A stretch of DNA of 61,153 nucleotides, counting the filler, from Hausera hauseri (taxonomy: Eukaryota): NCBI GenBank assembly GCA_046269625.1. It is 10 parts of 10 records of this genome, joined end to end, with 100 filler letters (N's around TTAATTAATTAA, not from the genome) between each part and the next. Parts side by side here need not be neighbours in the genome. Positions count along the whole stretch, not along the records: positions 56,283 to 61,153 come from JBJURY010408477.1; 9 more parts are not named here. One strand, given 5' to 3'. A program made the position numbers and the translations under genes. Positions 7,856 through 61,153 of the stretch are shown in pieces. Numbering within the stretch: the first letter of the stretch is position 1; each line of letters starts with the position of its first letter. The notes under the pieces were generated by a model. It searched no databases. It was given only the letters and a program-made list of their open reading frames with translations, and had not been told where the DNA came from.

Positions 7856-7879
7856 GTTTTCATCACCCCGCCATTATCT

Positions 7880-9734: not shown

Positions 9735-9736
9735 TT

Positions 9737-10086: not shown

Positions 10087-13000
10087 GAAATCAATAAAGC
10101 AAATTTAGAGATAAATTACGCAACTAATATTGCAGCAGATAACCCACCAGTAGCGAAGAAACTAGACATTTTTACCTTTGATTCTCTGAATCTGCCATCA
10201 TATGATGGTGACCCGGACGGGCTTAATGAATTTTTGAGAACTTATAAGTTACACGCAGAAGGTGTCAGTCTCACCCTTGAAGTAATGATTAAACGCTTGT
10301 CATTATATTTGAAAAATTTAGCCGCTGACGCTTATAGTGAGCTCACTAATGATGAGAAGAAATCTTGGTCTTCCCTGGTAGCAGCATTAAACCGTAAATT
10401 ATTTCCGACAGTAACGCCACAACAGAAGCTTATGGCATTTCAAAATAGAGTGCAACAAAAGGGAGAATCGGTAACCCAATTTGCATTTGCATTAAAGAAA
10501 CTTGCTAATAGTTATGTAAGTACTTTGAGAATAACTAATGTAGCAAAAGCTAAAACAGACGCAGAACGCGATGCTGCGGAAAAGTCAACCCCGCCAGAAT
10601 TAGACGTCTTGATGTCAACTCAATTAATTAATGGTATTTGGTCCCGAGATTTAGTTAAACAGTTGATTTTGGCCAGACCTGAGAATTTCAAGAAAACTCT
10701 GCAATTGGCTCAAGACTTAGAAATGGCACTCGATAGATATGCCAGACACAACAATAGAAATGATAGAAATAATGATCGAAACGACCGCAATGACAGAAAT
10801 CGGAATGACAATCGTGGAAGAGATGATAGACGATTTAATGAAAAAAGAAATAGTAATAATGACTACAGGAGTAGTCAAAATAATAGTTATGCTAATGGCC
10901 GAAATATGAACAAGTCAAATTCCAATTCGAATAGAAATCAAAGAAACTACAAAAGTTCTAACTATTCAAATCGTGATGATGATAATCGAAATAATGATAG
11001 TCGAAGAAACGCAGATAGTACACAAAGTTTGCCAAACCAGTATAATAGAGGCATAAGTAGGTCTAAGTTACCTGTAAATGAAGATGGACGACAGAGAGTC
11101 GGCAGAAATGGAAATTTAGTTTGTTTTACTTGCGGTAAAGAAGGGCATATTGCAAAGTCATGTCCAAATCCGCGTAGTGTTTCATTTACTGTGCCCAATA
11201 AGATTAGTATGATTAAAGTTAATGAAAACTTAGAAGCAAAATATGGCGTTCGTGGAGATACAGGCACTATCATCGATATACAAGATTTAAGAAAATTCTT
11301 AGATGCTCAGCCAACTACTGCGAACTTACAAATTTTAATGGCCAGAAGAGAGTACGCGGATAAGTTGAGGTTACTAGAAGTATATCATGGCTTAGCCGAG
11401 CCAGAGACCGAATACGAATGCTCTATAGCACCGAAACAAAGTGATATGACACGGAAGAAGAGTGTTCCAACGAACATTAACCCATCTGATAAACCAGGCA
11501 CATCGACGGCGGTCGACTTAGACGAAGAACCTGAGTTTGCAGTTGAAAAAGTAACTAAGCTTACTGAAGATGATGCAGCAGAAAAAGAATTTATGGAGCC
11601 ATTAATACTGAAAATTACAAAAAATAGAGGCCGTAGCCCTTCACTAAAAACCAAGCGCAGAAGTCGTTCACGTTCCAGAATAACCAGAGAGAAAATTGAA
11701 GAAAAGGAAAACCCGAATGTCGATACACCAGAAATTGGGCCATATACACCTGTAGGAGTAGTGGAGCCGATAGAGTCAATTAATGAAATTAACGAAATCT
11801 GCCCACTTCCCATTAGTGAGGAAGAAACGGCAGACAATGACGATTTCAATTCAAAAAAGTGGAAAATCCGACGCTCATGGAAAAACGCCGACGAATTAAA
11901 GAAAATGAGAATTTATTGTTTAGAGCCCGAAATATTACAACGAAACTTAGAGAAACTCAAGCAGATTAGTGAACAAGTCGACATATCCGGGAAAGAACAG
12001 CAATACGCCGAGAAGTTATATAAAAGCTTGAAATTACGTAGCGAAGGGAAGTTCGTTGAAGCAATCGATGTGAGGCAGCCTGAAGAGGTGTCCCCGGAAA
12101 TATTATTAAAATGGAAACACGAATTGGAATCGTGGATTAAAAGTGGAGTCGAGTTTGTAGAAGGATGGAATAAGAACAAAGATAGAATTGACGTAAAAGT
12201 CACTGAGGCTCAAACGCTATTATCTACTCTAGAAGAGAACCCAAAACTGAAGAGAGTAGTCCGTAACTTAGAACGTATCATGAACGAAATTCGGTATGCA
12301 ATGATTAAACACCTTAGAGAAAAATCAGTTAACCACCGCAGTAATATCGATTTGGAAATATTGGGTATAGACCCGTTGGATGTTCCTCCCCTAACGGAGA
12401 TGATAAAAATCGCATTCGCTACGCCCAAACAATATACAAACCTGGAAAATCGGCTGAAGATAGAAAATGAGAAGCGAGCACAAATTTTTAGCTTGAGGAA
12501 CCGGATCATGTTCCCAAACCACGAGGATACTCAGTATACAATTAAGGCTTGTATCGTGGAATTAGACGAGTATAGGGATGAAATTAATTATATCGGTCGA
12601 ATCATGAATTTTCTAAAAGGACCAGACGATGAGTTAGAAGATGCCTATAAGATGCTAGATAGAGCCATAATGGCAAAACCTGTAATTACAAAGCAATTGA
12701 CGGAATGGTCCGAGTTAGTAACGCGACTAACCAAATTGGTAGAAGATCGTAAAGCGGAATTCCCGCAAAGCGATCCAACGGTGAAAAAGCAACTAGAGGA
12801 AAGTGCCCACGATTTGGCCACGTTGCGAATAGAAATAAATATCCGTACTCAATTTGAAGCGCTACGACAACTAAAATTTATGGAAAAGGAACGAGAAGTG
12901 TCGACGATGGAGGTAATCTACAAATTGATCGAAGAGACGAATTTTACGGAGAAACGGAGTATGATTTACGATGTAAATTCAAAGTTAAGGGTTGTCCGGC

Positions 13001-14247
13001 TAGAAGGGATTCAATACTTAACTGGAAAACAAATCGATGAAATTTCTGCACAAGACATTGAAATTCTGGATATTTGTCCAGGGCATCGAGATACGTTAAC
13101 GGACGCAATAAAGTTTCTGCATAGACCTCAAGAATGGATGTTGGGGTCAGATCAGAATTTCCATACCAGGTTGATAGAAATAGGAAACGACCCACATTTT
13201 AGTTTTCAGGAACACAAATTCGTGAAGAAATTGTCGGATGCGATGGACCCTGATTCCAAGGTCATAAATGAGATGTACGAGTTAGCGTATTTATTGGTAG
13301 AAATGGCAGAAATCAGTGACGAGCAGATGAGGCAATTGAGGCCCAAGATACAGAAGGTAGAAGAAACATCTATCAAAACAAAACAAAGAGCGACAAGGTT
13401 AGATGAATTAACAAAAGAGCTCGCAGTCTATCGTAACAAGTATGCTTTTACCAAAACAGAGATTAAAATAAACGAGAATTTGTACAAAGATGGCAAAAGG
13501 ATGATTCTCGAGTTAGCAGATTATCACCAAAAAGGACTCATCGACTCTAATGAATTCGGCGTTTTACTGAAAATGATTCAGTATGCCTGTGGAAACGGGG
13601 TAGGATTCCATACTACACAGATGAAAGAAATACAACCCAGACTGAAAGAAATTAGAAAAACTGTACAAAGAGTAAGAACAACTGGGGTAGATGACAGATT
13701 ACCAGATGTCGGGAACGACCCAGAATGGTACGCATACTTCAACGAAATTCTGACCGAAAAGCCCATGACTCCAGTACGATTAAACGAAACAGAAACAAGT
13801 CCACAGGATAAACGGTTTAATGTGGAGATGCTATTGGACTTAGCGCTAACTGAAAAGGATTTGACTGAATTAATTGACGTAAATATTACTGAGAATCAAT
13901 TACGGCAACTTATTCCAACTCTATCTAAATTTTCCAGTGAGAACACGATTTATAGCACGGTGCCGAAGCTCTTGATAAGGAAGTATGCTAAAACGTTAAA
14001 GAATAAATCCGTAGTAACGATGAAAGTGATGTTGTCATCCGAATGGATGGACGAGAAAGAATACGAGTTGACTACCTATTCCTATGTAAGGGATGTAAGA
14101 GAGTGGTTAGTAAACAATGGGGCAACGAACGAGCTGAATTACAAATTTTATTTTAGAGGTAGAATACTTGATGACCTCGAACAACTAATAGAAGTCGACA
14201 TTATTCCTGACGAAACAAATCGGGTAGTGGTAGTAATAACCAACTAA
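10087..14247 (+). CDS. gag: Gag (capsid + CCHC knuckle) with a ~1000-aa C-terminal extension ending in a ubiquitin-like domain
   Basis: The frame is open from 10087. LPSYDGDPDGLNEF capsid start, QQKGESVTQF, an N/R/D-rich linker, then CFTCGKEGHIAKSC. No protease motif was seen in the extension. Confidence 0.9.
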   Translation, partial: EINKANLEINYATNIAADNPPVAKKLDIFTFDSLNLPSYDGDPDGLNEFLRTYKLHAEGVSLTLEVMIKRLSLYLKNLAADAYSELTNDEKKSWSSLVAALNRKLFPTVTPQQKLMAFQNRVQQKGESVTQFAFALKKLANSYVSTLRITNVAKAKTDAERDAAEKSTPPELDVLMSTQLINGIWSRDLVKQLILARPENFKKTLQLAQDLEMALDRYARHNNRNDRNNDRNDRNDRNRNDNRGRDDRRFNEKRNSNNDYRSSQNNSYANGRNMNKSNSNSNRNQRNYKSSNYSNRDDDNRNNDSRRNADSTQSLPNQYNRGISRSKLPVNEDGRQRVGRNGNLVCFTCGKEGHIAKSCPNPRSVSFTVPNKISMIKVNENLEAKYGVRGDTGTIIDIQDLRKFLDAQPTTANLQILMARREYADKLRLLEVYHGLAEPETEYECSIAPKQSDMTRKKSVPTNINPSDKPGTSTAVDLDEEPEFAVEKVTKLTEDDAAEKEFMEPLILKITKNRGRSPSLKTKRRSRSRSRITREKIEEKENPNVDTPEIGPYTPVGVVEPIESINEINEICPLPISEEETADNDDFNSKKWKIRRSWKNADELKKMRIYCLEPEILQRNLEKLKQISEQVDISGKEQQYAEKLYKSLKLRSEGKFVEAIDVRQPEEVSPEILLKWKHELESWIKSGVEFVEGWNKNKDRIDVKVTEAQTLLSTLEENPKLKRVVRNLERIMNEIRYAMIKHLREKSVNHRSNIDLEILGIDPLDVPPLTEMIKIAFATPKQYTNLENRLKIENEKRAQIFSLRNRIMFPNHEDTQYTIKACIVELDEYRDEINYIGRIMNFLKGPDDELEDAYKMLDRAIMAKPVITKQLTEWSELVTRLTKLVEDRKAEFPQSDPTVKKQLEESAHDLATLRIEINIRTQFEALRQLKFMEKEREVSTMEVIYKLIEETNFTEKRSMIYDVNSKLRVVRLEGIQYLTGKQIDEISAQDIEILDICPGHRDTLTDAIKFLHRPQEWMLGSDQNFHTRLIEIGNDPHFSFQEHKFVKKLSDAMDPDSKVINEMYELAYLLVEMAEISDEQMRQLRPKIQKVEETSIKTKQRATRLDELTKELAVYRNKYAFTKTEIKINENLYKDGKRMILELADYHQKGLIDSNEFGVLLKMIQYACGNGVGFHTTQMKEIQPRLKEIRKTVQRVRTTGVDDRLPDVGNDPEWYAYFNEILTEKPMTPVRLNETETSPQDKRFNVEMLLDLALTEKDLTELIDVNITENQLRQLIPTLSKFSSENTIYSTVPKLLIRKYAKTLKNKSVVTMKVMLSSEWMDEKEYELTTYSYVRDVREWLVNNGATNELNYKFYFRGRILDDLEQLIEVDIIPDETNRVVVVITN

Positions 14248-14715
14248 CAGACTAAAGAAGAAGCTACACGTAAAGCCAAAACAGAACAATGCGTAGGACA
14301 AATTATGGGAGTCCGCGATGCTGCAATGTACTTTGAATACTTACAAACGGATGAAGACAAGGAACAATATGATATTAATTTGGTACCATTAAGTGAAATA
14401 ACCACTAAAAGCCAGAAATCAAAACGTCCGGTAGGTAGGCCTAGGAAACCACGTGAGGAAGTAGATTACAACGGAGAATTGATTATGGAATTGAAGCAAA
14501 TGTCGATTCCGACCTTTAATACGGAGAATGAAAAATTGAATGAGCTAACGAGAAATTTGATACGAATTGTAAATTATTCAAGCCTTCGAGGTGATGTATT
14601 AGAGGATAGAGAAAGGATAATTTTCGAAGCAGCCAAAACAATGAGGAGTTCACGTTTTAAATTATCAAAAAGCAGCTTAACTGACGAAGCGGTAATAGAA
14701 AGGATTATGGTGTAA
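14248..14715 (+). pseudogene. In-frame continuation of the polyprotein with an AT-hook-like motif (KRPVGRPRKP)
   Basis: Same frame as gag and env, bounded only by single TAA codons at 14245 and 14713. Confidence 0.65.
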
Positions 14716-17150
14716 AATACTAACGAAAAATTGAGAAAGGTATTGCTATATTTAGCCATTAAAATAAATCCTAATCGAGAGAACAAAATCAATAGAGCTA
14801 TAAGCCTAGCACGGAAAGCAGCAAGGAAGATGCCCTGCCTAGTAAACTGGTCGAGACTATTTGATAGGGAAGAAGATAAACGAAACAATAATAAATTTGA
14901 CGATATGCTGCGTAATTTGACGATGGCGGACCTTAGAGGCCAAAAAGTCGAATCAAATTGGCTAATTAGCCTACTCACTCTAATAATGCTAGTTAAGCAC
15001 ATAAGCGCTGTGACTATCTGTGATTGTGACAAGTTTAAATTAGGACAAAAATACTCCTTAATGGATCTGAAAGTATGCGAGGACGCCAGACCACACAAAT
15101 TAGAAACAAAAGAGAAAAGTTATTTCCTGTACCAACAACAAGAATTGATATCGTTGGATGGGATGAAATGTATGCTGAGACGATCGCGCAGTATTTTTCA
15201 CTGTGGCTTGATTCATGGACACTCATCTATAATTAAACCAACAACCCCATTGATTGCGATGAATTTAGAACGCCAACACTGTAAACAAGCCAGAGAAACT
15301 GGAAGGATACAATGGGAGAGCATGCAACTGGAATTGCAGCCGGGAAAAATAATAAGAGCATGTAAAGTAGTGGCCCGAATGTTAGATATGCATAGCGGAC
15401 ATTGTAATGGAGTAGAGTATCATACCGGGAAAGGATTAGAATGAAACGTAGTGGTTGTGGATTTCTACGAAGCAGAAATGCGTTCACAAAAAGTAATGTT
15501 CCACAGTATCACTAAGTTATATACCGAAAATCAGAAATGCCATTTACAAGACGGAACCTGTGCTTTTAGAAGCTCGGTTATAATATGGGAACATCCATCT
15601 GGACGAAATTGTAATTTCATTAAAATCAAAGAGTTAAAATTTAATGAAACAACGGGAAAGCGATATGTCGACAAATCAGAAACAAATTTGAGATCACGAG
15701 AATATGTGTCAGAGCACTCTACACCTACTATATTAATTTCAGACCAACATGGATTGAAGTTTATAAAAAAAGAAATGATGACTCGTTGCGATGTGGTGAT
15801 GTTTGCTACAAACTGTGAAGCGTTTTTCGTAGCGGAAACGGAAATAAGCGCGAAAACGTATAAGTTAGAAACACAGGATGTACGTATCGAAGATTACCTG
15901 AAAAACAGAGATGATTTCTTTTACTATAAAGGACAAGTAGGAATAACAGAATTGTATCATAAAATGATAATGAATGACTGCAAATTGGACACGGAAATTA
16001 TGCGAACTAAAATGGCTCTGATATATGCAAATCCAGAATTGGCTTCTCCAATAATTCCCATGAGAGAAGGAATTTTTGGCCGAGTAACGGGTGAAGTACT
16101 ACTTACCTACGAATATGAGAAAAGAGATGTACCCATTAACGTAGAAGAAAAATGCTGCATTCAGGAACTTCCTGTTATTTACCAAAATATGCCGAGACTG
16201 GCTACACCATTGACAAAAGTATTGCTGGATAACGCCACACAACCAACCATTCTTAAGAATTGTAAAGCGAGCCTAGGAGAATCCATGTTTAGACGAAGTG
16301 AGACAGATTGGGTCAGCTTGCCGAATGGAGGAATCATTGCCGCACCGAATAAATTGACGGGAACAAATCTCGCGAAAGGAATCACGGACGATAAATTTCA
16401 CGACACCTCATCAAAAGGTATATATCGACCAAAGGAAATTGAAGCCTTCAGATAATTCCTCGCTTTTCCGAGACAACGAACACATGAGTTAAATCGAGCG
16501 ATGGCCTCTGTAGTAGATGATACGCGATACCAAGCTAGATGGGAATCTTTATTCAGTGTGAATCATTATCAACGAGTAACAACTGAAATACTTTATAAAA
16601 TGTGGGGAAAATTTCTGATATTCGGACAAGCTGCATCTGGATTCTTAGCGATATATTTTCTAATACAAATGATCAAGGCAGTGATCCAAGCCGTAATAAA
16701 TGGGTATAAAATATTTACGTTAATTGGATTTTCATGTAAAGTTTTAAAAGCGATCATAACGCCTTTCGGGAAATTCTTGAAAGCCTACGAAGAAAACAAA
16801 TGGAAATCAGACTTAGAACGCCATGTCGGCTACCATAATCGCAAACGAAGAGGAAGACCAATATTCCTACGAAAGCGAAAATTCACACAAAACATTACAC
16901 AAAGAAACAATTCAAACGATGACGAGCCTAAGGGAGGAGAAGCACTTCCAGGAATAAATAAACATAAATATACTCTGTCGTTAAAGCGCCATTGCCCATG
17001 TTGCCTCCTACCGCCCCATTCTACGAAGACAAAAGGTCAATGGGCTCGTATCAGACGGAAATCTATAAAAGGACAATTAACGTAGAAGACCCTTACGAGG
17101 GAACAAAACGTTACGGAATTCTACGGAAAATGTGTTACCGACAATCCGCA
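14716..17150 (+). pseudogene. env: Chuvirus/gB-type (class III) envelope glycoprotein with internal signal peptide and TM region; two point stops and a late frameshift
   Basis: Signal WLISLLTLIMLVKHISA, then the Cys pattern CDC..YSL...C, C..R..FHCG..HSS, C.G..Y....*NVVV, C..QDGTC....IIW, C.QELPV, GIY..FP, MWGKFLIFGQAASG..TM. The TGA at 15442 sits where Trp is expected. Confidence 0.85.
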
Positions 17151-21900: not shown

Positions 21901-24168
21901 ACTAAAGAACTGGATATAATTATCCAACCAACGAGTCATTCATTAGTTATTACAGTGCCTGACCTGAAGAACACAAACATAAAATTTGAGTGCCATCTCA
22001 ACCATAAAGTGATTAGTGAAGGAGTTCTAACTCCTGAAGAACCAACATCCGCATGCATGTTTCTAAAAGCCGACACAAACTATAAAGTCATCATAATAGA
22101 ATTAGATGATGAAGGAGAAAAGTTAAGAACGGTTTTTCGTACAGAAAAGACTTTAAAACAAACAATAACCACCCCAAAAATTATACGAAGAGTGACGGTG
22201 CAGGAGCCAGAACAAACTTCTAATAAAAACCTTTGGATAATTAGTGTATTATGTGTCTTCTTAATATTACTAGCTATACTTCTACCTTTAGCAATTTACC
22301 GTTCAAAAATGAAGCAACGACGGCGTAAAATTAGGGAAATGTTAAATCAGTTAAAAATGTTAAGGAAAGACTCCCAAGAATCGTTAGTAGACATAAGTGC
22401 GCTTTTTTCACAAAAACAACGGCAAGTTGAAGAACTTACCGATCTGGAGCGGCAAATTCAACCGCTTAAAAGTAGGCAAGCCGAAAAGCTTGCCGACCAA
22501 AAGCGGCTAGTACAACCGCTAAAATATGAACAAACTGAGGAATTTCCAAATGAAGAGTGGCAATCCCGACCGCTTAAAACTATAACCATGTATTTATGCA
22601 CAAAAATTCAGGACCAGGCCGCAAGATTTTTAGCGACCTATATTTATAGACAGTCAAAATACAAAGATATTATTATATGTAGAAAATTTTGGCCGCTGTT
22701 GATATTAATTTTTTTAGTCGGCGAAGGATCCGAACAGGCCCAGCGACCGAACAGTTTTTACCACAATATTGTTGCCAATCTACTGGCGTCCAGCAAAAAT
22801 TATGTTTACTATAAACAAGCCCATATGATACCGAATCATCTAAAAGGACACACTATAAATCAAAGAAGTGGCCTTATAATCAAGTTACAAACACATTCTA
22901 CTAAATTATCCGATTTGATCGATCTTACAAGTAAAGCCATGGCCATTTACATTTCAGTATCGAAAGGAACAATTCAATTAAAAAGCAAAGTTCTCCCTAA
23001 CGGAATCACAGATATAATTAACATTCCATCCCCAACCACGATTAGATTGGACGACAAATTCTTCAAAAATGTAGAAATAACTATCAGAATCATGAATGAA
23101 ATTCATCCAATCTTATATATCGAAGTTATCAAACAAGAAAATATCTTCCATAATGAATTAAAACAATTCAATTACCCAATACCAATTCCTAATGACTCTT
23201 TATTAGAAAAAGGTGTATCATTCGCAAGATCAACTCAAATACGGAAAGAAGATATAGTAATTGTGACTACTAACTCTGCGTATGTCATGCAACCAGTCCG
23301 CAAGATGGAAGTAACACTGATAGAAGTAACCATTATGGATTTAGATGGTAAAATCGTTTTCGATAAAATATTATGTCCACGTGACAGAATAGATAATTAC
23401 AATAGTCACGTAACCGGCCTAAGAGAACCGGACATAATAGGACAAATAGATCTCTTACAAACTTATCCTTTGATCAAAACTCATCTTACTGGAAAAATTA
23501 TCGTTGGAATGAATGTATTTTATACTCTTAATTACATTCTTAGATGTAGTCATCATTTGGTCTTGGGTATACGAGATTTACTCTATCATGAGAAGGCCAA
23601 TCCGAAACAAGAATTTAATCCTAAATATATCTTAACTGCATTCAATAATGGCGTCTATCCTCAAAGAACAAAAGCCAAAGCGAAATCAATGTTGGACATA
23701 TATAATTCAATTCCAGAATATAAAAATGAAAACTTAATGGACAAACTATCCCCAACAGATATCCACATAACCGATATTGAAACTAAAGAAAATCCAGAGA
23801 AAACAAGAGATTCTGCAAGTAACAAACTCTCCCAGGCGTCCTCAATAGAAAATAACGAAGTAAAGGAAATAGTATTATCGTTAACGAAGGAACCTAAGAA
23901 ATTGAAACAGAAACAATCTGATCTGATGGATTTATCAACTCAAATTATGATCGATTTAACAAAAAATACCAGAAAGTCAATCTCGTCTAAAGAAACAATC
24001 ACCCTAAAACGGAAGATTAAAGAAGAAGACCAATGGTTAGAAATAGATGCAGTACGATACCGACGTCCCGATGGAACCTACAAAATTTACCCTCTGAAGC
24101 CGAGGACGGCTTCATCTAAGGAGGGAGGTGTCGAACATGTGAACCCAACAAGTGGACTAAACATGTAA
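21901..24168 (+). CDS. 3'-terminal ORF of an LTR element, 5'-truncated: FN3-like domain, TM helix, coiled coil, second hydrophobic segment, degenerate DEDDh (REXO4/ISG20-like) exonuclease domain
   Basis: The frame is open from the contig start. TSHSLVITV...LKADTNYKVII; TM LWIISVLCVFLILLAILLPLAIY followed by RSKMKQRRRK; VTIMDLDGKIVFDKILCP..IDNYNSHVTGL..LTGKIIVG..IRDL. The ORF runs through the PPT into the LTR. Confidence 0.75.
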   Translation, partial: TKELDIIIQPTSHSLVITVPDLKNTNIKFECHLNHKVISEGVLTPEEPTSACMFLKADTNYKVIIIELDDEGEKLRTVFRTEKTLKQTITTPKIIRRVTVQEPEQTSNKNLWIISVLCVFLILLAILLPLAIYRSKMKQRRRKIREMLNQLKMLRKDSQESLVDISALFSQKQRQVEELTDLERQIQPLKSRQAEKLADQKRLVQPLKYEQTEEFPNEEWQSRPLKTITMYLCTKIQDQAARFLATYIYRQSKYKDIIICRKFWPLLILIFLVGEGSEQAQRPNSFYHNIVANLLASSKNYVYYKQAHMIPNHLKGHTINQRSGLIIKLQTHSTKLSDLIDLTSKAMAIYISVSKGTIQLKSKVLPNGITDIINIPSPTTIRLDDKFFKNVEITIRIMNEIHPILYIEVIKQENIFHNELKQFNYPIPIPNDSLLEKGVSFARSTQIRKEDIVIVTTNSAYVMQPVRKMEVTLIEVTIMDLDGKIVFDKILCPRDRIDNYNSHVTGLREPDIIGQIDLLQTYPLIKTHLTGKIIVGMNVFYTLNYILRCSHHLVLGIRDLLYHEKANPKQEFNPKYILTAFNNGVYPQRTKAKAKSMLDIYNSIPEYKNENLMDKLSPTDIHITDIETKENPEKTRDSASNKLSQASSIENNEVKEIVLSLTKEPKKLKQKQSDLMDLSTQIMIDLTKNTRKSISSKETITLKRKIKEEDQWLEIDAVRYRRPDGTYKIYPLKPRTASSKEGGVEHVNPTSGLNM

Positions 24169-27830: not shown

Positions 27831-28099
27831 AGACGATTTACCCACAGATGAATGAAGAAGAAAGTCTTTACGTTATTCCAAAATCTGTATTAATCGATTC
27901 AGTCACCTCACCTACGCAAAACTCTCAATCTCTTGTTATCCGTTATCAGAAACCCGACTCATTCATCAGACCCACCGACGAAATGCATTAAACCCGGTAA
28001 TAACTTTTAAGTATAAAACGGAGGTCCGAAAATGATGTTGGAGTAAGCAGATTTCCAAGTTGGTGTTGACACTGAAGAAAATGGGTAGAATACTCGAAT

Positions 28100-44195: not shown

Positions 44196-47100
44196 GGAAG
44201 GCTAGTCTGTCAGGATTCACACAAATCATTTAAGGACCGAAACCTACAACGGAACTTCAATAATAATATTAGTAGTTTAAGAATATTATATTACAATATT
44301 GGAGGCTTGCGCAACAAGATTGGTAATCTGGAGTTTTTTGATTATGTTAGGGAATTTGATATCTTTTGTCTTTCAGAGACTTTTATTGAAACCGAAAATG
44401 TAAATTATTTCTTGAATTTTTTCCATGATTATAATTTGTGTTGGGAGTCAGCGGTTAGGACTAACTTGTTTGGACGGGCGAAGGGTGGGATGCTTTTGGG
44501 ATACAGGAAGGGATTAGAGGGAAAGGTAAAATTTGGAAAGGTCAGGGGTAGTAATATTTTTTATTTGTCCATGAAAGGGAAACACTGCATGATTTTACCT
44601 GTTTACCTCAGCGGTGGTAAAGATGCAGACTGGGTAAGGGATTTTAGGAAGTTGGAATGCATTCTTGGGGAATGTGGTGACGGTGGGAGCACAATTCTGA
44701 TTGGGGACTGCAACGGGAGGATAGGGGAGGAGCAGTTATTAGAAGATGAGCTAATCATGGAATATAATATAGGTACGAGGAGGAAATCTAAAGACAAGGT
44801 CTTGAATAAGAAGGGTAGGGATTTGGTTGATTTATTTGTAAATAACAACTTAGTAATATTAAATGGCAGGGTGAAGCAAGATCTGCAGGGGGAATTCACC
44901 TACATTGGTCCAATGGGATCCTCTGTTATTGATTTGTGTGGGGTATCATTGAATGCCATAGAAGCAATTAATTCATTCAAGATAGATCTGAAATGTTTTA
45001 CTGACCATATGCCTGTAACTATGGAACTGCTTTATGAAGACGCCAAGGAGAAGGATAATATCATATCGCTCCTGCCTAAGCTTTTATGGCGGGAAAACCA
45101 TGAAAATCAATATAAGGAAAAATTAACGAAGGCGTGTCAAAAACAAAACCCGAAAAAATCAAATGTTAATGAATATGTAGAATACCTAAATAGTGTAATA
45201 TATGAAGCGGCAGGTTATAAAGACGGGTCCATCAGAGTTAGAAAGAGTAAGTCCTGGAGTGGGCAACCCTGGTTTGATGGACAATGCCAAAAGGCCAGAA
45301 ATCGTATGTTTGGATTATTAAAGATGTATCGAAGGAATAATCTGCCTGAAATCAGGAATGAATACATAAAGGCTAGGAATTTTTACGCAGATATTCGCAG
45401 GAAGAAAAAACTTGAAAGGACAAAATCAATGATAGAGGCTTTTAAAGGGGTGAAGAACACAAAAAATTTCTGGGAGGCAGTTCGCTATTTTAAGAGAAAA
45501 AAAATTAAATGCTGCCCAGATATAAAACCAAACCAGTGGGTGGATTACTTCAGAGGATTGTTTGAAGGGAATAGTGATGAAAGTCTTATGATCTACGCTC
45601 CTCCATTGTATGGGGACGCCTCATTGGACCAGGAAATATCGTTACCTGAATTGATAGCAGTGATAAAGAAAACCAAAAATAAAAAAGCGCCAGGCATAGA
45701 TAGGATAACAAATGAATATTACAAGAACGCTTCCGAATCTTATTTGAACTTAGTGCTAGGATTATTTAATAAGATTTTTCAAACAGAAACAGTTCCGGCA
45801 ACTTTTGCAGAATCAATTATTTTTCCACTCCATAAGAAAGGGGACGTGTCCTTAACAAGTAATTATAGGGGTATTTCATTTATAAATGCCTTAGGAAAAA
45901 TCTTTTCAGGGGTACTATTAAATAGACTAGAAAGGTGGGTAACTGAAAAATGCATATTGTCTGAATTCCAGGCAGGATTCAGAAAGGGTTATGGAACAGT
46001 AGACAATATTTTTAACTTGTACTGCCTTAACAATCTCTGTGTTAGGAGGGGCAGAAAATTATATGCTTTTTTTGTAGATTTTAAGTCAGCGTTCGATAAC
46101 ATAAACAGAAAATCGCTTTTTTATAAGTTATATAATGTAGGTATCTCTACTAAATTTATAAATGTGTTAATGGGATTATATAAATACACAAAGTCATATG
46201 TGTGGACGAGGGAAGGTTTAACGGAAGGTTTTGAGACAAAGAACGGTGTGAAACAGGGATGTCTGTTATCTCCGTTAATTTTCTCATTGTTCATAAATGA
46301 TCTCCATCAGGAATTGGGAGGGGGGGTGACTGTTGGTGGTGTGGATGTCAGGATTCTTTTATATGCAGATGATATTGTGCTGATGGCCACAGACAGAATT
46401 ACACTCCAGAGGATGATTAACAGTCTGGCGGAGTACTGTCACAAATGGAGTCTTACAGTTAATTTGGAAAAATCAAAAATAATGGTCTTTAGAAAAGGTG
46501 GCAGACTGGCAAGCACAGAATGTTGGAATTATGATGGTAATCCCATAGAAGTTGTAAACAAATATAAATATTTGGGAATAATACTTACGCCATTGTTCTC
46601 ATTAAATGTTCATATGGAGGAGAAGGTCGCATCAGCTAAGTTTGCTATATACAATGTGTGGAACTCCTTTTATACAAGGCAAAATATACCAGTGTCCAGT
46701 AAGTGGGAAATATTTAACTCAGTGAACAGAGCGGTCGTTACCTATGGTGCACAGGTGTGGGGGTACAGAAGTTTTGACACGCTTGAGAAATTTCAAAGAT
46801 TCATTGTGAAGAAAATATTATTACTACCACAGTACACACCTAATTTCGCTATTTACTTGGAGATGGGTATTGATCTCATGTTTTCATACACATTAAGACT
46901 GCATCTGAGTTACATTTTTAAAGTTTTAAAGATGCCGGACAATAGATTGCCCAAGATACTAGCGAAATTAGTAATAGAAAGGAGATCCGGATGGTTTGAG
47001 AGCTGGCTGAGATTGGCAGAAAAATATGGTTGTAGTCTGGACAATAATATACATGGAATGGATAACTGGGAAAGTCAGTGGGAAAACCTCATTATCAAAA

Positions 47101-47300
47101 TTAGGGAAGTAACAAGGGGTAGTTGGATAGAAAAAGCGCGCTCGACCAATCAAGGTAGAATAAATTGGGATTTAGGAGACAAAACATATTTAGGAGAGGA
47201 ATATCATGGTCAAATGATCAGTGTCATTTTTAAAGCTAGGGCAGGAGTGTTACCGCTAAACGACTCACCACATAGAGATGAAGGAGCAAGGATTTGCTGA
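44196..47300 (+). CDS. LINE ORF2: apurinic endonuclease + reverse transcriptase (clade not resolved)
   Basis: LRILYYNIGGL, CLSETF, IGDCNGR, IDL, TDH; KAPGID, NYRGIS, QAGFR, FVDFKSAFD, GVKQGCLLSP, LYADD, YKYLG. A disrupted Cys/His motif follows the stop. Confidence 0.95.
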   Translation, partial: GRLVCQDSHKSFKDRNLQRNFNNNISSLRILYYNIGGLRNKIGNLEFFDYVREFDIFCLSETFIETENVNYFLNFFHDYNLCWESAVRTNLFGRAKGGMLLGYRKGLEGKVKFGKVRGSNIFYLSMKGKHCMILPVYLSGGKDADWVRDFRKLECILGECGDGGSTILIGDCNGRIGEEQLLEDELIMEYNIGTRRKSKDKVLNKKGRDLVDLFVNNNLVILNGRVKQDLQGEFTYIGPMGSSVIDLCGVSLNAIEAINSFKIDLKCFTDHMPVTMELLYEDAKEKDNIISLLPKLLWRENHENQYKEKLTKACQKQNPKKSNVNEYVEYLNSVIYEAAGYKDGSIRVRKSKSWSGQPWFDGQCQKARNRMFGLLKMYRRNNLPEIRNEYIKARNFYADIRRKKKLERTKSMIEAFKGVKNTKNFWEAVRYFKRKKIKCCPDIKPNQWVDYFRGLFEGNSDESLMIYAPPLYGDASLDQEISLPELIAVIKKTKNKKAPGIDRITNEYYKNASESYLNLVLGLFNKIFQTETVPATFAESIIFPLHKKGDVSLTSNYRGISFINALGKIFSGVLLNRLERWVTEKCILSEFQAGFRKGYGTVDNIFNLYCLNNLCVRRGRKLYAFFVDFKSAFDNINRKSLFYKLYNVGISTKFINVLMGLYKYTKSYVWTREGLTEGFETKNGVKQGCLLSPLIFSLFINDLHQELGGGVTVGGVDVRILLYADDIVLMATDRITLQRMINSLAEYCHKWSLTVNLEKSKIMVFRKGGRLASTECWNYDGNPIEVVNKYKYLGIILTPLFSLNVHMEEKVASAKFAIYNVWNSFYTRQNIPVSSKWEIFNSVNRAVVTYGAQVWGYRSFDTLEKFQRFIVKKILLLPQYTPNFAIYLEMGIDLMFSYTLRLHLSYIFKVLKMPDNRLPKILAKLVIERRSGWFESWLRLAEKYGCSLDNNIHGMDNWESQWENLIIKIREVTRGSWIEKARSTNQGRINWDLGDKTYLGEEYHGQMISVIFKARAGVLPLNDSPHRDEGARIC

Positions 47301-53511: not shown

Positions 53512-53800
53512 TGCATGACCACGCCTATTAGTCAGTAGTAGGAATAAATATCAAGAAAATTTGTGATATCGTTAATGACAACCCATCTATACATTTATAA
53601 TAAAAATATAAATTCTAAATGCATAATTCAACAGACGATACTTTTGTATTTCAGCGTCGATCCATTTGCAATATATGTTTATTTCATTTGTTCGTCATAC
53701 TATATACGCATATTTGATGATTTTACGGAATCCATTGCTTTATTGTCTAACTATTGTAATTTGTTTAAATAATGCAAGTGGCAAGAATTTAAATAATTTA

Positions 53801-55755
53801 ATGAGCAAAGAAAATCAATTTGAATATTTTACATATATTGTCGATAAGGCAGATGAATGGGATAGATTCCAACGGGATGTTAATTTATTGACGCAATCTG
53901 TGATAACGCCTATGCAGCGATTGCCTATGAGATTGCGACGACGAGCTGCTAGTCACAAGAAAAATCGGATTCCATTTCGCATCAGGAAACAAACGAAAAA
54001 CATAAAACAAGAAATTTCTAATCAAATCGTCAAACGTTGTCGCAAATACAGACGTCGTCATTTGAATAAGACTGTTGAATTTGACCGACGACAAACGAAC
54101 AAACGATGGATGGCTACACACGTTTGGCATGCTAAACGATTTAAAATGGAAACGAAATGGGGTTGGCGTATACCAGTCGTGCCAAATCAGAAATGTTTTC
54201 GTCCGTGTACGATGGGGATGCATAAGTAAACAATATTTTCGATTATTTGAACTGAATCTGGTTTTTCAGGAGTTGTGTCGTTATGGATGCTAGTTTTTGG
54301 CATGTTTTGGAATTTATCGGTAAAATGGACGATATATGGAATTGTCTCCGTTTAATGATAGATCCGGCTACTGTTGGCGAAGTGCGAGGGCAATTGGATG
54401 GTCGCAGTGAAGTGTTGGTTATGCTGCATTGTGCTGGGACGTTTCCGTACGGTGCTATTTGTCCAGTGCGGCTGGTGAAAATATCTGATGATGAAATTTC
54501 ACCTCAGACTGTTACAATTCTCCTATCGGTCCATCCCAGTGCGGCATCAGAATTGACTCAACAAATAATCATGACATTCAAATTGTCAACAGACGACAAT
54601 CACAATTGGACGGGACAACAACAACGTCCTATCACCATGATAGACAGAACTGGTGAATTATGCAGATTCCGTCTGATGGGTCCTCATTCACAAAATATCA
54701 TTGCTACATTAACAGGTGGAAAATTCCCTCGTGAAAATCTCTGTGAGACGACCATCGATGATCCTGCAGTATTGCGACCAGCATTACGACAGACAGACAT
54801 TCCACGAATGGACACGATTCCTGTGTTAGAATGTGACAGTGCAGTACCGTCACAATTTCAGTCGACAACGGCAACAGAAGGACAGCAGACGGATTTCAAT
54901 GGGAGATGTCCATTATTGTTCTTGCGTCAATGTTACGATGACCCGCGTTTCCCCGGTGGTTGGGATTTGTTAACACCATTTCGATGGGCTGCGTCTCTCT
55001 GGGTTACTCTCATTTCCCGTGGCGCCAGACCGACTTGTGTTCGTTACGTCAGCCGTTATATGGCCATAGAGGCAACGAGTCTCCTCGCTAAACTGGATTG
55101 TTTCCCATATTTCGCATTCCATGATACGCTAACAGGAAGAGCAGTAGCTGATGAATCCACTGCACAACAACAAACTCAGTGGATGCGCAAATCACCGTCA
55201 CGTCGTATCAATTACGCATTGTACGCAACAGACACCCCATTCAGTTGTCCATGGAATCAATTGATGTCTGATGAGAAGTTCTACGTCATGCGCAATTTGT
55301 CCCACCTCCGGGCAGTTGCACGACTCCTGTCAGGTGATTTACCGAACCTGAATGGTGTTCGATGGACACCAAACATGGCGGCATTCGATAGGATGGATGC
55401 GAACATGAGGCATTCGTTGGTGCCTATCATTATTGAATGTCGTCGTAAAGTATTACCGTATGCTGCCATACTTGCATCCGCAAATGGTGACGATGCGTTA
55501 GTCAATATGGAGCAGTTAGCAGCAGCTGATGGTGGTTCAATCGAATGGGTGCGCCCTCTCATTGGATTTGTCGTCATCGGTGACCAGTCACTAGCGGTTG
55601 GCAAATGTCGTGCATTCGGTTTCATTTCCTTTGTCAGATTGGTTGAAATATTCGCTAGCCATTTGCCCTGTGGTCGTGTATGGCTCAAGAATCCAAATAG
55701 TCGGCAGATGGTCTCCGCAGAAATGTACGTGTGTAAATATGGTTTAAATCGTTGA
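53801..55755 (+). CDS. POP1: RNase P/MRP subunit POP1; two exons (53801-54225, 54270-55755), ~636 aa
   Basis: QRLPMRLRRRAASH and WMATHVWHAKRFKM..WGW motifs, later GWDLL and IGFV..G. A 44-nt GT..AG intron restores the frame (MHK|SCVVMDASF). AATAAA overlaps the stop. The start codon is inferred. Confidence 0.92.
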
Positions 55756-56282: not shown

Positions 56283-59200
56283 ATACTTGCAACCTCAATA
56301 CAGCTTCGTCCATTTTTAAATCCGATCGACCTCGCGGATAATTGGGTAATTATTATTTCGTCCAGTAATGTTTCATTCATTTCATGTCTGGTGGGAATTC
56401 GTATGGTTCGTACTAATTTAGTATATTTACTTCGATAGTAATCTCCTTTTTTCTTTATAATCGTAAGGTATACATTATGGAGGCCTGAATCTTGCACTAC
56501 ACATTGCGTTTCATTGATCCATGGATGGATTAAACAATCATAGTTTCGTTTATTAGGGTTTCTGTCATTATCGTCCCATGGTATCAATTGTATTCCTATT
56601 AGATATTCTGGAGTCATTCGTCTTGACACGCTCCAAATCACACATTTTTCACCTTTCCTTGTATACGTTACTTTATGTCGTAAGCTCTTTAGCAATAAAT
56701 CTTCATTTATGGCCACAGCGTGGCGTATTTTGGCGTGCTCGATTTCTTGTTTTGTCAATTGGCTTAAAACTGTGGGCATTAATATGAGGAATATCAACAC
56801 GATATATTTCTTTATTCCATGGAGTTTATAAGGGATTTGTGTTTCGTCTACTTTTTCGCTGATACACCGAACTATCTCTTGTTCTTCTTTTCTTAACTTA
56901 CTCTCTTTAGCTGCTGGTTTGCATCTATTAACATGGACTTTAAGGGAGACATTATTTTTCTTTAAACAGATATTAGGTAAATCTACTTTTTCAACTTCAT
57001 ATGGCCCTTTATATGGCCTATCTAGTTTTGATGTCTTTCCTCTCTTATTTAGTGGCGTATACAGCATCATCTTATCGCCTACTTTGATTTTTGGCTGTTT
57101 TGTTTTTTCATCATAATATTTCTTATATTTCATCTTATAGTCCTTTTGATTTCCTTCTATTATCTTATACGCTAACTGGAGTCGTTCTTGCATTAATTGT
57201 TTGTATTCTTCTATCTCCATCAAATGAGAAGTAGGTCTCACGTTAAAATCTAGGTCAATGGGTAATCTTGCGTCTCTAAGGTACATCAAGTAAAATGGCG
57301 TTTCTTTGGTGGCTTCATGAACAGACGTTCGGTTTACAAAAACACATGCGTTGATATATTCATCCCAATCATCTTGTCTGATATTTACTACCGTTTGTAG
57401 TTTTCCTTTCAAATCACCGATATATCTTTCAACCATTCCGTTATTTTCTGGATGTCCAGGCGTGGATCGCAGTTTTAGTATTTTCATAATATCATATATG
57501 GCCTGCATTACATTTCCGGTTAAGTTGGATGCTTGATCGGTTAAGAGAATTCGAGGAGCTCCATAGTTAAACACTATATTTTCTACGAATCTTTCAGCAA
57601 TTGTTTCTGCTTTCATGTCCGCCATGGGTAAGGCAACCACCCAGCGAGTAAAATAATCTATAAAAACTAAGATGTATCTATTCCCGTTCCTAGTTAGTGG
57701 TAAAGGACCAGTGATATCCATGGCTGTAAATTCAAATGGTGCAGGTGGATTATCCCACACTTTAAGGGGAGCTTTGAATTTTGATCCTGTATTTTTCCTA
57801 GTGGCGCATAGTTTACAACTTTCGCACCATTCCTGCACGTCCTTTATCATGGTAGGCCAAAAATATTTCCGTTTTAATTTATTTATCGTCTTTTTCGCTG
57901 ACTGATGTCCGCCTAGTAATCCATCATGGTATTGTGTTAATAGAACTGACCTATTTTTCCGTGGAATTACTAATGATGGTCCATTTTGATGAATATAATA
58001 TAAGAATCCATCTTTTTCTTCGTATGCCTCGCTAAATCGGGCTAGATGTCTAGCCAATTCTTTGTTCGTTGGCAATAGTTTGTTTTGTATATAATTTCTG
58101 ATCGCTTTTATATCAGGATCTTCTTGTTGATTCTGTTTAATCTTTTCTATTGATCCATCCATACTCCAGACTGCTGCTATCACTTCTTTCTTTGTTTTTG
58201 ATTCATCTGTCATTCTTGACAAATAATCTGCATTCGCGTTTCGTGTTCCCGGCTTATACTGGAAGTTTAATGTATAGGGCTGTAATTTAAGAGCCCATCG
58301 TAGTAATCGACTATTTGGATTCTCGTGTTGTTTTAGCCATTGTAGTGGTCGATGATCAGTGTATATTAGTAGTGGCTTATTTTCACTGATGTAAGGTGAA
58401 AAAACTTCTAGGGCAAATATTACTGCCAGCAATTCCTTTTCGATTACTGCGTATTTCTTTTGGTGTTTGTTAAGCTTTCTTGAAGCATAAGCCACTGGAT
58501 GCTCCTTGCCATCTTCACCTTTTTGTGACAATACTGCTCCAACTCCGTAGTCACTTGCATCCGTTGCTAGTATGAATGGTTTAGTAGTATCTGGGTATAT
58601 TAAGATTGGGGCGGTTAACAATCTATCCTTTAAGTGTTCGAAGGCTTTTTGGCAATCGTTTGTCCAAAATACTTTTTCCAAATCTTCTCGTAACAATTCG
58701 TATAAGGGCTTGGCTATTTTGCTAAAATCCTTTATAAACCTTCGGTAATAATTGGCCAGTCCTAAGAATCGACGTAATTCTTTGACCGTAGTTGGTTTCG
58801 GGAAGTCTTTGATCTTTCCCAGTAACTTATCTTGAGGCCTTACTCCATGTCTATCAACTCGATGTCCGAGGAAATCCACTTCTGCCTGGGCAAATGAACA
58901 TTTCTTTGGGTTTATCTTCAATCCCATTATTTCACATCTGTCAAAGAGATCTTGTAAGTCTTTCAAATGTTGTTGAAAATTCGATGATGCTATTATCACG
59001 TCATCGATGTATACCAGAGCATGGGGTGCATCCAAGAGTAACAGTTCGGTTCCTCTTTGAAACGTGGGTGGACCATTCTTCAATCCAAATGGCATCCTAT
59101 TAAATTCCCATAGTCCTTCGCCTATTGAGAAGGCTGTTTTCGGTTTATCCTCCTCTTTTACTTCTACTTGCCAGTATCCTTTTTGTAAGTCGATAGTCGT

Positions 59201-61153
59201 AAATATAGTTGATCCATGTAATTTATCTAATATTTCGTCAATTCTGGGTAATGGATACGTGTCTGTTTCCGTTATTTCGTTCAATGCTCTGTAGTCTATA
59301 CAAAATCTCATAGATCCATCTTTTTTCTTAACCATTACTACTGGTGCTGTCCATGGTGAGCAACTTGGTCTAATTATTTTATTTTCTCTCATTTCTTGTA
59401 TTATCTTTCGAGCTTCTTGCTTCTTGTCATAAGCTAATCGATACGGTCTTTTCTTTATGGGTCTATCCTGTCCTTCTTTTAATTTAATACTATGTTGTAT
59501 TATTTTCATTGTTCCTAAATCGTAATCATTCTGCGCAAAGCGATTATTATTTTTCTCCAACAGCTGGATTAACATTTGTTTTTCTTCTTTGGTTATGATG
59601 TCACATTTTTGTAATTTTTCTGCCCAGTTGATCTTAATGGCTTTCTTTTCTTCTTTATTTTTATTTACCTTTTTCTTCAGCTTTTTCATCATCATCTCCT
59701 CGATTTTATCCACATCTGAAGTTACCAAATTAATTTCGTCTCTCACTATTTCTTCGACCTTTGTTGCTTTTCCCAGCCTAGTGTTCTTCCTCAATCTTTT
59801 CTCTTTAGTTCCTGTATTGCACATTCTCAGATAGACCTGTCCGTCCCTTACTCTGTCAACATGCGGTGCAACCAAAATTTCATATTTTTCCATTATTTGG
59901 GGGGTTGGTTCAAAGTAAATAGTTTTCATTAATACTTCTTTTTCCAATTTACCGGGTACTACTATTTCAGTACGTGGTGGTATTATAATATCCTCCATTA
60001 TTGCAACCATACTCTCATTTTGATCTTCGTTAAATACCTTAAGTTGTCCTGTTTTTACATCGAGGTATGTATTTTCTAATTGTTTTAATATGTCGCAACC
60101 AATTAACATCTCGTTGGTTAAGTTTTCCGCTATTCTTACGGTATGTTGTATCGTTTGATTGCAGATCTTAATTTTGGCATCCAAAACCATCTTGATCTCT
60201 TCTTCGGTACCAAATGCTCCGATATTTACTAGTGTTGTTTCCGGTTTCCGTAGTTTTCTCTTTAGTTCTCTTGGTAGTAAACTTTTTCCCATAATCGTAG
60301 TAGTCGATCCTGTGTCTATTAGGGCCGTCACTGGATATCCGTTTACTTCTATGTCTATCTCCGGTCTTGGGGTTGATTGTGATTCGTTTTCATCATTCAC
60401 TTTACATGTTGGTTCTCGGTTATATGGCGTCGGGTTTGCGCCATAATTTTGTCTCATCTGTTGCATTTGGTGTGTGGGGTATAATCCTATATGTTCCACA
60501 TAACGAGGAGCTGATGGATTTGCAAACATTGACTCGCTATAGATTTGTCCATGGTATTCATCTGCCGGGTCCAACTGGGGTATATCCGTTATTACTTTTC
60601 GATTATACCTTCTTTTTTGTGATTTTAACGAAAATCGCTTTAATCGGGTTATGTATCTATTATTCTTCGGCTTCGTATCTGTGTTATCGTCATTATAATC
60701 TCGACCGTTTAGTGTGCTATATGGTGAATTCCTTTCAATATCCTTACTTTTTTCCTTAAGTATCTTCTTTTTCCATTTCGCGTCCTGATTCGCTAAAAAA
60801 CAACTAGCTACCGCAGGGATTATTGCTATTAATATCTTCCATGAGCAGCCAACTGCTGCATGTATGCCATATGCCTTTCCAAGCGCTGTGAATATTGTTC
60901 GCAGAGCGCTTATAATAAAATATATAGCCAAGAATCCTGATGCTGCTTGACCGAAATATAAGAATTTTCCCCACATCTTTTCCATTACGTTCTTTGTAAC
61001 CTTTTTAAGGTAATCTCTTCCCATTAGGTTTTCCCATTGTGGTGAGCCTTCGCCATCCCACATCACTCTTCTTGTTAGCTCCGTTATTACTCTCTGTCTT
61101 TGTTGAGGAAACAACAACATCCGCCGATAATCTTCCAGGTTTTGTTGGGTATA
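56283..61153 (-). CDS. Uninterrupted polyprotein open at both contig ends: Env C-terminus/TM - PSAP linker - PR - RT - RNase H - IN - signal peptide - ectodomain (Ty3/Gypsy-type)
   Basis: The N-terminus aligns with the C2 glycoprotein (KMWGKFL.FGQAASGFLAIYF). Then ALIDTGS, RFCIDYRALN, MPFGLKN, VYIDD, TDASDYGVGAVL, HHCC, MDITGPLP, TDQ, NNGMVER, KGPY, and finally YIVLIFLILMPTVLS. Confidence 0.93.

Follow-up and report, generated by a model that had tools for sequence, protein, structure and literature searches.

A Ty3/gypsy element in the Hausera hauseri assembly with a chuvirus-type Env read in frame into Pol, and a possible membrane-threaded polyprotein

The last contig of the analysed window carries a Ty3/gypsy element in which the end of a viral fusion glycoprotein runs in one open frame into a complete Pol, and this env-PR join is genuine and family-wide. 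The window, meaning the whole stretch of 61,153 nucleotides, consists of 10 unrelated contigs with N-spacers between them; the element occupies 56283-61153 and its host is likely an animal. In the reading preferred here, for which the case is evenly balanced, the contig preserves part of a Ty3/gypsy element of Burro-like type that encodes a membrane-threaded polyprotein; its Env tail would drive budding and would hold Pol in the forming particle until PR frees it. The features identified on this contig, and on two others with members of the same family, are as follows.

60779..61153, minus strand: C-terminus of a chuvirus-type fusion glycoprotein (PF24664), 125 aa; Pfam E 2.6e-21, hhalign, hydropathy
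60371..60778, minus strand: aa 126-261, predicted cytoplasmic tail of Env plus spacer; motifs enriched among relatives and among the tails of stand-alone glycoproteins
60074..60370, minus strand: aspartic protease (PR), aa 262-360, DTG intact; Pfam RVP E 2.4e-11
58856..59476, minus strand: reverse transcriptase (RT), YIDD at aa 715; Pfam RVT_1 E 3.4e-35
58274..58591, minus strand: RNase H (RH); Pfam RT_RNaseH E 6.2e-40
56909..57967, minus strand: integrase (IN) with HHCC zinc finger, D-D-35-E core and GPY/F module; Pfam E 7.8e-20 and 1.2e-11, motifs
56756..56815, minus strand: second signal-peptide-like hydrophobic helix, aa 1447-1466, after IN; hydropathy 2.98 over 12 aa
56285..56755, minus strand: first 157 aa of a beta-rich domain predicted to be extracellular; the contig ends within it
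10087..17085, plus strand (contig 2): a broken, different member of the same family, with four internal stops and no pol on the contig
21901..24168, plus strand (contig 4): 3′ part of another family member, with an FN3-like unit, TM and exonuclease-like domain in the same frame

Read on the minus strand from 61153 to 56285, the contig holds 1623 codons with 0 stops and is open at both ends, in agreement with the stop-free frame of more than 1600 codons given in the preliminary description; the remaining two minus frames contain 30 and 18 stops in their first ∼950 bases. The order env(TM)-tail-PR-RT-RH-IN-signal-ectodomain lies entirely in this one frame. Its start, previously taken for the end of a viral glycoprotein, is indeed of chuvirus type, with Pfam Monjiviricetes_fusion (PF24664) matching aa 1-151 (profile 479-630 of 653) and hhalign against an alignment of 29 family glycoproteins giving 99.6%. 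This end comprises a membrane-proximal region and hydrophobic segments at aa 64-92 and 94-122, and the frame is open past the window end. The alignment to the contig 2 glycoprotein, described as gap-free, is so over the first ∼117 columns, the whole match being 38% over 134 aa (E 7e-27). Pfam placed PR at aa 262-360, RT at 608-766, RH at 855-960, the IN zinc finger at 1063-1121 and the IN core at 1138-1235, and a motif check found DTG, YIDD, the RNase H acidic residues, HHCC and D-D-35-E intact, bearing out a complete PR-RT-RH-IN. The Ty3/Gypsy assignment also stands, on the PR-RT-RH-IN order, the GPY/F module and an RT closest to Ty3/gypsy. Past the IN GPY motif the frame continues for 208 codons, a stretch that stayed open in none of 20,000 base shuffles. 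An Rfam search across the window gave no match. Since the contig, a 4.9 kb fragment ending inside coding sequence on both sides, lacks gag, the gag-env-pol order claimed for the element is seen directly only as env before pol and otherwise rests on relatives.

The reality of the join was investigated among related proteins. When RT alone was used to search proteins of 2842-5000 aa, a length window that favours fused proteins, all 11 matches at 52% or above (52-55%) carried PF24664 in the same chain, as did 1 of the remaining 109 matches listed; because every one of these closest-RT long proteins has the glycoprotein, the join is no accident. PF24664 was followed by PR within a single protein in 13 of the 17 top matches scanned, and locus L003 has gag, env and pol complete in one frame of 2693 codons, so that the env-PR continuity looked for in other copies was found. 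P0026, which itself lacks env, was scored as env-in-frame by inference, from a contig of the same length as that of P0002. No intact form with separate ORFs was found among the closest RT relatives, which were long proteins only; P0015 and P0017, considered as separate-env forms, were set aside, as in both the chain stops at the Env anchor, apparently through breakage or truncation.

That a collapsed repeat fused an env fragment to a pol of other origin, by artefact or by chance, can hardly be credited. The contig is short and comes from a multi-copy repeat, the best run could be that of the source sample itself, and among 32 run contigs listed of 13,845 pieces none spans TM to PR and none covers 60555-60749. 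Nevertheless, more than 20 independent proteins, as well as loci L001 and L003, show the same env-before-PR order. Around 60300-60900, listed run contigs connect TM with tail over 60750-60958 (1 difference) and tail with PR over 60260-60463 (23 differences), none of them crossing the whole interval, and depth in X1, X2 and X4 is non-zero in every bin of 60195-61153.

The same evidence bears on the idea that Pol is made mostly from RNA that bypasses env, through splicing or internal initiation, the long frame being rarely read through. Splicing is the usual means of separating env and pol in retroelements, and it could fix the problem of stoichiometry posed by a single frame, whose 1:1:1 Gag:Env:Pol ratio is unlike that of retroviral particles, a point against the membrane-threaded reading. 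A skipped region would not need to stay open, however, and the 137 codons from TM to PR are open here (1 of 20,000 base shuffles) and in the 13 of 17 relatives above, making this explanation highly improbable.

The family is multi-copy, but run contigs at 99% or more numbered only 180 of 1584 in X1 and 865 of 11973 in X2, and no full copy of the element was seen among the run contigs. Similarity is 85-95% for most run contigs, and the tail of one carries a frameshifting deletion; the suggestion that this copy is recent or active found no support. The 33 variants listed comprise 27 synonymous, 6 non-synonymous and 0 stop changes, which counts in favour of the preferred reading.

In a quick RT-RH tree the element fell inside a group of 18 such elements (SH-aLRT 96), branching early within its RT group. 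RT matches carry gypsy-type domain sets, and the best solved relative of the family profile is Ty3-G Gag-Pol (E 3.3e-111). Many relatives share the domain order, with gag upstream in the same frame, and of the 18 mapped relatives that bear env, 10 have a CCHC knuckle upstream of it. Members across the family retain a whole glycoprotein ectodomain in which cysteines are invariant. The likeness of this ectodomain to gB is weak by sequence: a 29-sequence family profile led to herpesvirus gB for 29 of 31 PDB matches, at E 0.11 or worse, the element's own ectodomain lying off the contig, and this weakness weighs against the proposed mechanism. A word-seeded protein search with aa 1-260 gave no match among 350 candidates of 892-2841 aa, a blank that reflects a limit of sensitivity, since a HMMER search without a word index found matches. 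Viral contig scans found no relative. Within the window, the contig 2 member contains gag-CCHC, a long coiled region, a ubiquitin-like segment, an internal signal peptide and a whole glycoprotein; the contig 4 FN3-like unit scored 19.1 bits against the family FN3-unit profile (0 of 300 shuffles as good), and its exonuclease-like domain matches L001 (E 3.7e-11). For the host, one search with the POP1 gene of a neighbouring contig of the window matched human POP1, a second had no match and a third resolved only to 'Eukaryota'.

A fusion protein ahead of the enzymes is an already published layout for flatworm elements; the layout, whose novelty the preliminary description could not confirm, is therefore not new. 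In the parts of the account drawn on here, the Burro and GYPSM1 giant planarian Gypsy elements (Arkhipova and Yushenova 2019, PMC6431247), like the present one, have a mononegavirus-related Env in frame upstream of PR in the same ORF as pol, Burro env lying in frame between gag and pol. With the layout in print, the element mainly adds one member, early-branching in its RT group. As in Burro, relatives carry ubiquitin-like (L002, E 0.0047, and again the contig 2 member), Bcl-2-like (P0015, E 0.00096) and ankyrin (P0151, E 5.5e-6) cargo. Burro-type features in the same parts of that account include a length above 30 kb, an ORF in which env is preceded by gag and by ubiquitin-like and Bcl-2-like modules, and a dUTPase-like domain between PR and RT (PMC6431247); in the element, the ∼200 aa between PR and RT, where such a domain was sought, had no Pfam match at E 0.1. 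The element, with one PR and a compact pol, was set beside Burro by description, the tree being built without a Burro sequence. A post-integrase membrane protein, an exonuclease and late-domain motifs are not mentioned in those parts of the Burro account.

Similar arrangements occur elsewhere. GAG-ENV-POL order is described in nematodes, bryozoans and flatworms in the main text of Chary and Hayashi (eLife, PMC13524379), whose HSV/gB-type 'errantiviruses' of Nematoda, Bryozoa and Platyhelminthes resemble the element in having a Ty3/gypsy pol with a gB/chuvirus-type env before it; a gB-like (class III) ectodomain fold and several near-identical (>98%) intact copies are traits of those elements. 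That main text does not state a shared env-pol frame and does not mention fibronectin, late domains, exonuclease or Burro. Nematode endogenous retroviruses (NERV), as cited there, are Metavirus elements with a captured RNA-virus glycoprotein before pol. The element also shares its glycoprotein family, PF24664, with chuvirus glycoproteins and with the chuvirus-G-bearing BEL/Pao elements of mosquitoes, in which, in the portion of that report used here, G stands alone (PMC7642597). In the element, by contrast, it is fused to gypsy Pol. NERV reportedly has one continuous gag-env-pro-pol frame, and is said to be nematode-restricted, with helicase or small accessory ORFs.

Between TM and PR, the preliminary description had placed a linker of ∼130 aa. 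The 137 open codons are there, and they are better read, from their motifs, as largely a predicted Env cytoplasmic tail. A basic (positive-inside) patch directly follows TM, and a PSAP motif at aa 213-216 (60506-60517) is followed by an LYP motif at aa 224; patch and motifs fit the earlier proposal that Pol lies behind the Env anchor in the cytosol. In a first set of tails, P[TS]AP, PPxY or YPx(1-3)L/I occurred in 8 of 15 (1.8 expected; 0 of 5000 shuffles), and in tails of held-out relatives in 9 of 10 (2.3 expected; 0 of 3000 shuffles), counts that exclude a 'strict' pattern shaped after the data were seen. Against the mechanism, the element's tail lacks a full YPxL and 7 of the 15 first-set tails lack any such motif. 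A plain endocytosis-motif reading of the tail was set aside, because generic YxxPhi motifs are no more frequent than expected (8 of 10 against 7.9). No published description of late-domain motifs in the Env tail of such elements was found.

These motifs need no link to Pol, since stand-alone glycoprotein tails carry them too (15 of 26; 2.4 expected); two named chuvirus G proteins among the matches, P0051 and P0056, both have PTAP in the tail. The single frame might then be a translation strategy only, in which PR frees Pol early, Gag or RNA packages Pol and Env travels separately, the way it does in other enveloped retroelements; one frame is compatible with such early cutting, which counts against Pol staying on Env. 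In many relatives the region from Env to RT has taken up additional PR copies and further cargo, with up to 7 PR-like stretches in P0151, which suggests a series of cleavable modules under loose constraint. A YP motif lies ∼30-55 aa upstream of the first PR in most members and, by the retroviral rule, YP could be an aromatic-proline protease site. YPxL-type motifs, however, stand before the first PR in 14 of 24 cases but before none of 29 later PR copies; their absence there speaks against a general site for release by PR, and the lack of an intact separate-ORF form among the closest RT relatives also tells against a mere translation strategy. We regard it as somewhat unlikely, though the most serious of the alternatives.

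After IN the frame runs through the helix at aa 1447-1466, which is preceded by lysines and occurs at the same position in 16 of 18 relatives. A signal-ectodomain-TM module follows IN in 15 of the 18, typically FN3-like, and in most relatives this second ectodomain is FN3-like and TM-anchored: the relatives' unit modelled as FN3 (pLDDT 88.9, plus Foldseek; fibronectin E 3.3e-5). The element's own domain has two N-glycosylation sequons and no Pfam match. Against the family FN3 profile it scored -0.5 bits (92 of 300 shuffles as good; hhalign 0.07%), and its single-sequence model (pLDDT 37.6) gave structure matches only at Z 3.6-5.0, many of them FN3 sandwiches. This miss, together with P0227 and P0249, which lack the module, speaks against the proposed mechanism. 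No published description of a post-IN membrane protein in such elements was found.

Under the membrane-threaded mechanism, Gag would be made in the cytosol and Env sent into the ER by its internal signal peptide; the Env anchor would return the chain to the cytosol, where Pol would begin as the tail of Env. A second protein destined for the lumen would start at the helix after IN, and what is left of that helix could tether Pol to the membrane at its far end. Host signal peptidase would cut at the two signal peptides and the element's PR at the remaining sites, ESCRT would be recruited by the PSAP/YPxL-type motifs, and the second surface protein may serve as attachment partner of the gB-like fusogen. 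Two hydrophobic segments follow the Env ectodomain, and the topology fails if both cross the membrane.

Such an element may instead never leave the cell free, its membrane proteins anchoring ER assembly or fusing neighbouring cells, with spread intracellular or from cell to cell. The main text of the errantivirus paper calls the transmission route outside Drosophila unknown (PMC13524379), and the element is known here from sequence alone. The retention of a whole glycoprotein ectodomain with its cysteines, of late-domain-like motifs and of a second surface protein nonetheless makes this improbable.

A further extension of the membrane-threaded reading, offered tentatively and judged rather unlikely, is that these are true enveloped viruses. 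Their polyprotein would be flavivirus-like and membrane-threaded, with Pol tethered at both ends, by the Env anchor ahead of it and by the signal-peptide remnant after it; not Gag but late domains of the Env tail, acquired from a chuvirus-type glycoprotein, would drive budding; and a swappable post-IN slot, mostly FN3-like, with Ig-like or other domains in basal members including this element, would supply the attachment protein for the gB-like fusogen. If true, this would be a two-protein entry system undescribed for any retroelement. The entry mechanism of gB-type elements is called unknown, and herpes gB needs partner glycoproteins, in the same main text (PMC13524379); a tangible candidate for that role is the family-wide second surface protein after IN. 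A budding route open to testing is suggested by the late-domain-like motifs of the tail. The element helps to complete the anatomy of gag-env-pol single-frame elements and, if both the partner protein and tail-driven budding hold, enzyme loading and assembly would follow a route unlike Gag-Pol packaging.

The element under study lies on the last (56283-61153) of the window's ten unrelated contigs and their spacers. On the minus strand of this contig 1623 codons are free of stops, with both ends open, which upholds the long env-to-Pol frame of the preliminary description; the viral-type glycoprotein end at its N-terminus was likewise recovered, and the catalytic motifs of the protease-reverse transcriptase (RT)-RNase H-integrase part are, as had been stated, all intact. 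Each spacer consists of N44, 12 bases and N44, and ORFs listed across spacers reach into these Ns, as does a "1640 aa" frame; a gap of 10 Ns interrupts one of the contigs.

Features of the element (minus strand, aa along its frame) and of the rest of the window
aa 1-151, minus strand: C-terminal part of a Monjiviricetes (chuvirus-type) fusion glycoprotein (Env; Pfam E 2.6e-21)
After the glycoprotein, minus strand: protease, RT, RNase H and integrase, in that order (Pfam)
aa 1447-1466, minus strand: signal-peptide-like helix after integrase, same frame
3235-7101, minus strand: separate, distant gypsy pol frame, 1288 codons, 0 stops, 31% RT-RNase H identity to the element
7856-17150, plus strand: broken family member (contig 2) with gag-CCHC, coiled region of ~900 aa, ubiquitin-like segment and whole glycoprotein
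8657-8995: broken RING-finger frame (PF00097 E 4.8e-7) upstream of the contig 2 gag, where an LTR or leader is presumed
17251-21800: broken gypsy element
21901-24168, plus strand: contig 4, with FN3-like unit, transmembrane segment (TM), further signal-like helix and exonuclease-like domain in one frame
28076-31657: ubiquitin-specific protease exon
43425-47300: LINE (ORF1 and endonuclease-RT)
53627-55755: divergent POP1 gene with short introns

The glycoprotein start matched a 29-sequence family alignment with 99.6% probability and the broken contig 2 glycoprotein with 38% identity over 134 aa, bearing out the alignment proposed earlier, gap-free for about the first 117 columns. The contig 2 member carries four internal stops, and its ubiquitin-like segment matches relatives (E 4.7e-13). 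Between the Env anchor and the protease, 137 codons are open in just 1 of 20,000 base shuffles, and splicing seems a very improbable account of the arrangement.

On sequence comparison, the env-protease join is genuine, a point settled by relatives. With aa 1-370 as query, HMMER returned 185 matches, and 13 of the 17 top matches scanned carry glycoprotein then protease in one protein. In an RT-only search limited to proteins of 2842-5000 aa, a length window that favours fused forms, the glycoprotein domain was present in all 11 matches of at least 52% identity vs 1 of the 109 others (120 matches listed). In metagenome data, locus L003 encodes gag, env and pol in one complete frame (2693 codons); at locus L001 an env-pol frame of 3426 codons precedes an exonuclease that has its own ORF. 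An artefact is thus rated as barely credible. In 10 of 18 env-bearing relatives mapped, env is preceded by a CCHC knuckle, so the gag-env-pol order proposed earlier is established for the family but not for this contig. A quick RT-RNase H tree of 44 sequences (SH-aLRT support, no bootstrap) placed this copy as an early, long branch within a group of 18 env-pol elements (SH-aLRT 96). Two protein relatives lie just outside the main group: in P0249 a more distantly related glycoprotein stands in frame ahead of the protease, and P0250 is a gypsy polyprotein of 3096 aa that has helicase domains and no hydrophobic segment. A full env-pol-membrane polyprotein of the family, P0006 (HBK71150.1), is deposited under a Flavobacteriaceae MAG, probably through eukaryotic contamination.

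Four public runs were compared with the contig, as run contigs only; the best run may be the source sample. Runs X1, X2 and X4 each gave coverage in all bins across 60195-61153. Among the pieces listed (32 of 13,845), one bridges anchor to tail (60750-60958, 1 difference) and another tail to protease (60260-60463, 23 differences), while none covers 60555-60749 or spans the whole anchor-to-protease join. In one X1 contig 10 bases are missing from the tail, so broken copies exist. Run contigs at least 99% alike to this copy are a minority (180/1584 in X1, 865/11,973 in X2), and the suggestion of a recent or active copy is not supported as regards recent activity. From 40 listed variants, the best-supported subset of 845, seven near 56410, clustered in one contig, were dropped; the remaining 33 (27 synonymous, 6 non-synonymous, 0 stops) hint at purifying selection.

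The ~130-aa "linker" noted earlier before the protease is present, but appears to be largely Env tail, and a basic patch directly follows the anchor. Classical late-domain patterns (P[TS]AP, PPxY and YPXnL, as listed in PMC8402826) were found in 8 of 15 stretches between anchor and protease (1.8 expected; 0/5000 shuffles) and in 9 of 10 later-fetched relatives, one of whose stretches overran the first protease (2.3 expected; 0/3000 shuffles); since the sequences are related, these shuffle statistics overstate independence. YPxL-type motifs stand ahead of the first protease in 14/24 elements, and ahead of later protease copies in 0/29. Stand-alone family glycoproteins, two named chuvirus proteins included, carry motifs in 15/26 cases, which implies that the motifs arrived with the glycoprotein; in the tails of such chuvirus-type glycoproteins (620-720 aa; P0051, P0056 and 24 others) P[TS]AP was found in 6/26 (0.16 expected) and YPxL-type motifs in 10/26 (1.7 expected). 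In this copy PSAP lies at aa 213, and there is an LYP that lacks the final leucine. Chuviruses are not known to have a matrix protein, and the motifs suggest that they may bud through the glycoprotein tail.

The frame extends 208 codons beyond the integrase GPY motif (open in 0/20,000 shuffles), and its helix at aa 1447-1466 is followed by a beta-rich region that carries two glycosylation sequons and is cut off by the contig end; the preliminary description, correct as to env followed by protease-RT-RNase H-integrase, had overlooked this signal helix and ectodomain. Among 18 relatives whose sequence continues past integrase, the signal helix, ectodomain and TM occur together in 15; one (P0243) has a signal helix and Ig-like domain, and two (P0227, P0249) no such module. 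A 13-sequence profile of the common ectodomain unit matches fibronectin (E 3.3e-5), and its predicted model (pLDDT 88.9) has FN3 domains as best PDB matches (TM-score up to 0.66); the unit is FN3-like. Contig 4 opens with such a unit (19.1 bits on the family profile; 0/300 shuffles), and its exonuclease-like domain is in frame; the homologous exonuclease at L001 (PF00929 E 1.4e-5) occupies an ORF of its own further downstream. The domain of this copy did not match the family FN3-unit profile (-0.5 bits) and its model was too poor for fold assignment, so the slot may hold differing cargo in early-branching members. Other ectodomains were seen in the slot of three of these:

P0243: Ig-like
P0228: short, cysteine-rich ectodomain
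L003:7700-8521: ectodomain of no assigned fold

Several aspartic-protease-like copies, some after integrase, were seen in P0151 (up to 7 stretches), P0002, P0001 and L001:2-10282; at L001 a second signal-FN3-TM module is inserted between protease copies.

We infer a membrane-threaded scheme in which Gag would be synthesised in the cytosol and Env would be routed into the ER by the kind of internal signal peptide that relatives and contig 2 carry. The Env anchor would bring the chain back across the membrane, so that Pol would begin as Env's tail, and the post-integrase helix would start a second luminal protein. Cleavage of the chain would fall to signal peptidase and the element's own protease; Pol could enter particles tethered to Env, the Env tail would recruit ESCRT and the second surface protein would serve attachment. 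As a whole this scheme is given an even chance. Its main rival, early release of Pol and packaging in the ordinary way, is plausible at appreciably lower odds, and intracellular spread is considered unlikely.

The env-before-Pol arrangement is real and family-wide, and its main point is already described. Planarian Burro elements (PMC6431247) have env in frame upstream of the protease, and their ubiquitin-like, Bcl-2-like and ankyrin cargo also occurs in relatives of this copy; in the broad sense of the term, this copy appears to be a further Burro-like gag-env-pol gypsy element. Chary and Hayashi (PMC13524379), who cite Sacco et al. 2022, describe gB-type elements with GAG-ENV-POL order from nematodes, bryozoans and flatworms. 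Against the PDB, 29 of 31 matches of the family glycoprotein profile are gB (best E 0.11), a weak link. Neither the post-integrase membrane protein nor the Env-tail motifs were found in the literature searched; beyond the material searched, they could be mentioned in figures, in the authors' sequence files, or in Grohme 2018, Jurka 2007 or Sacco 2022. The interest lies in this second surface protein and in the motifs of the Env tail, which open the assembly route to testing.
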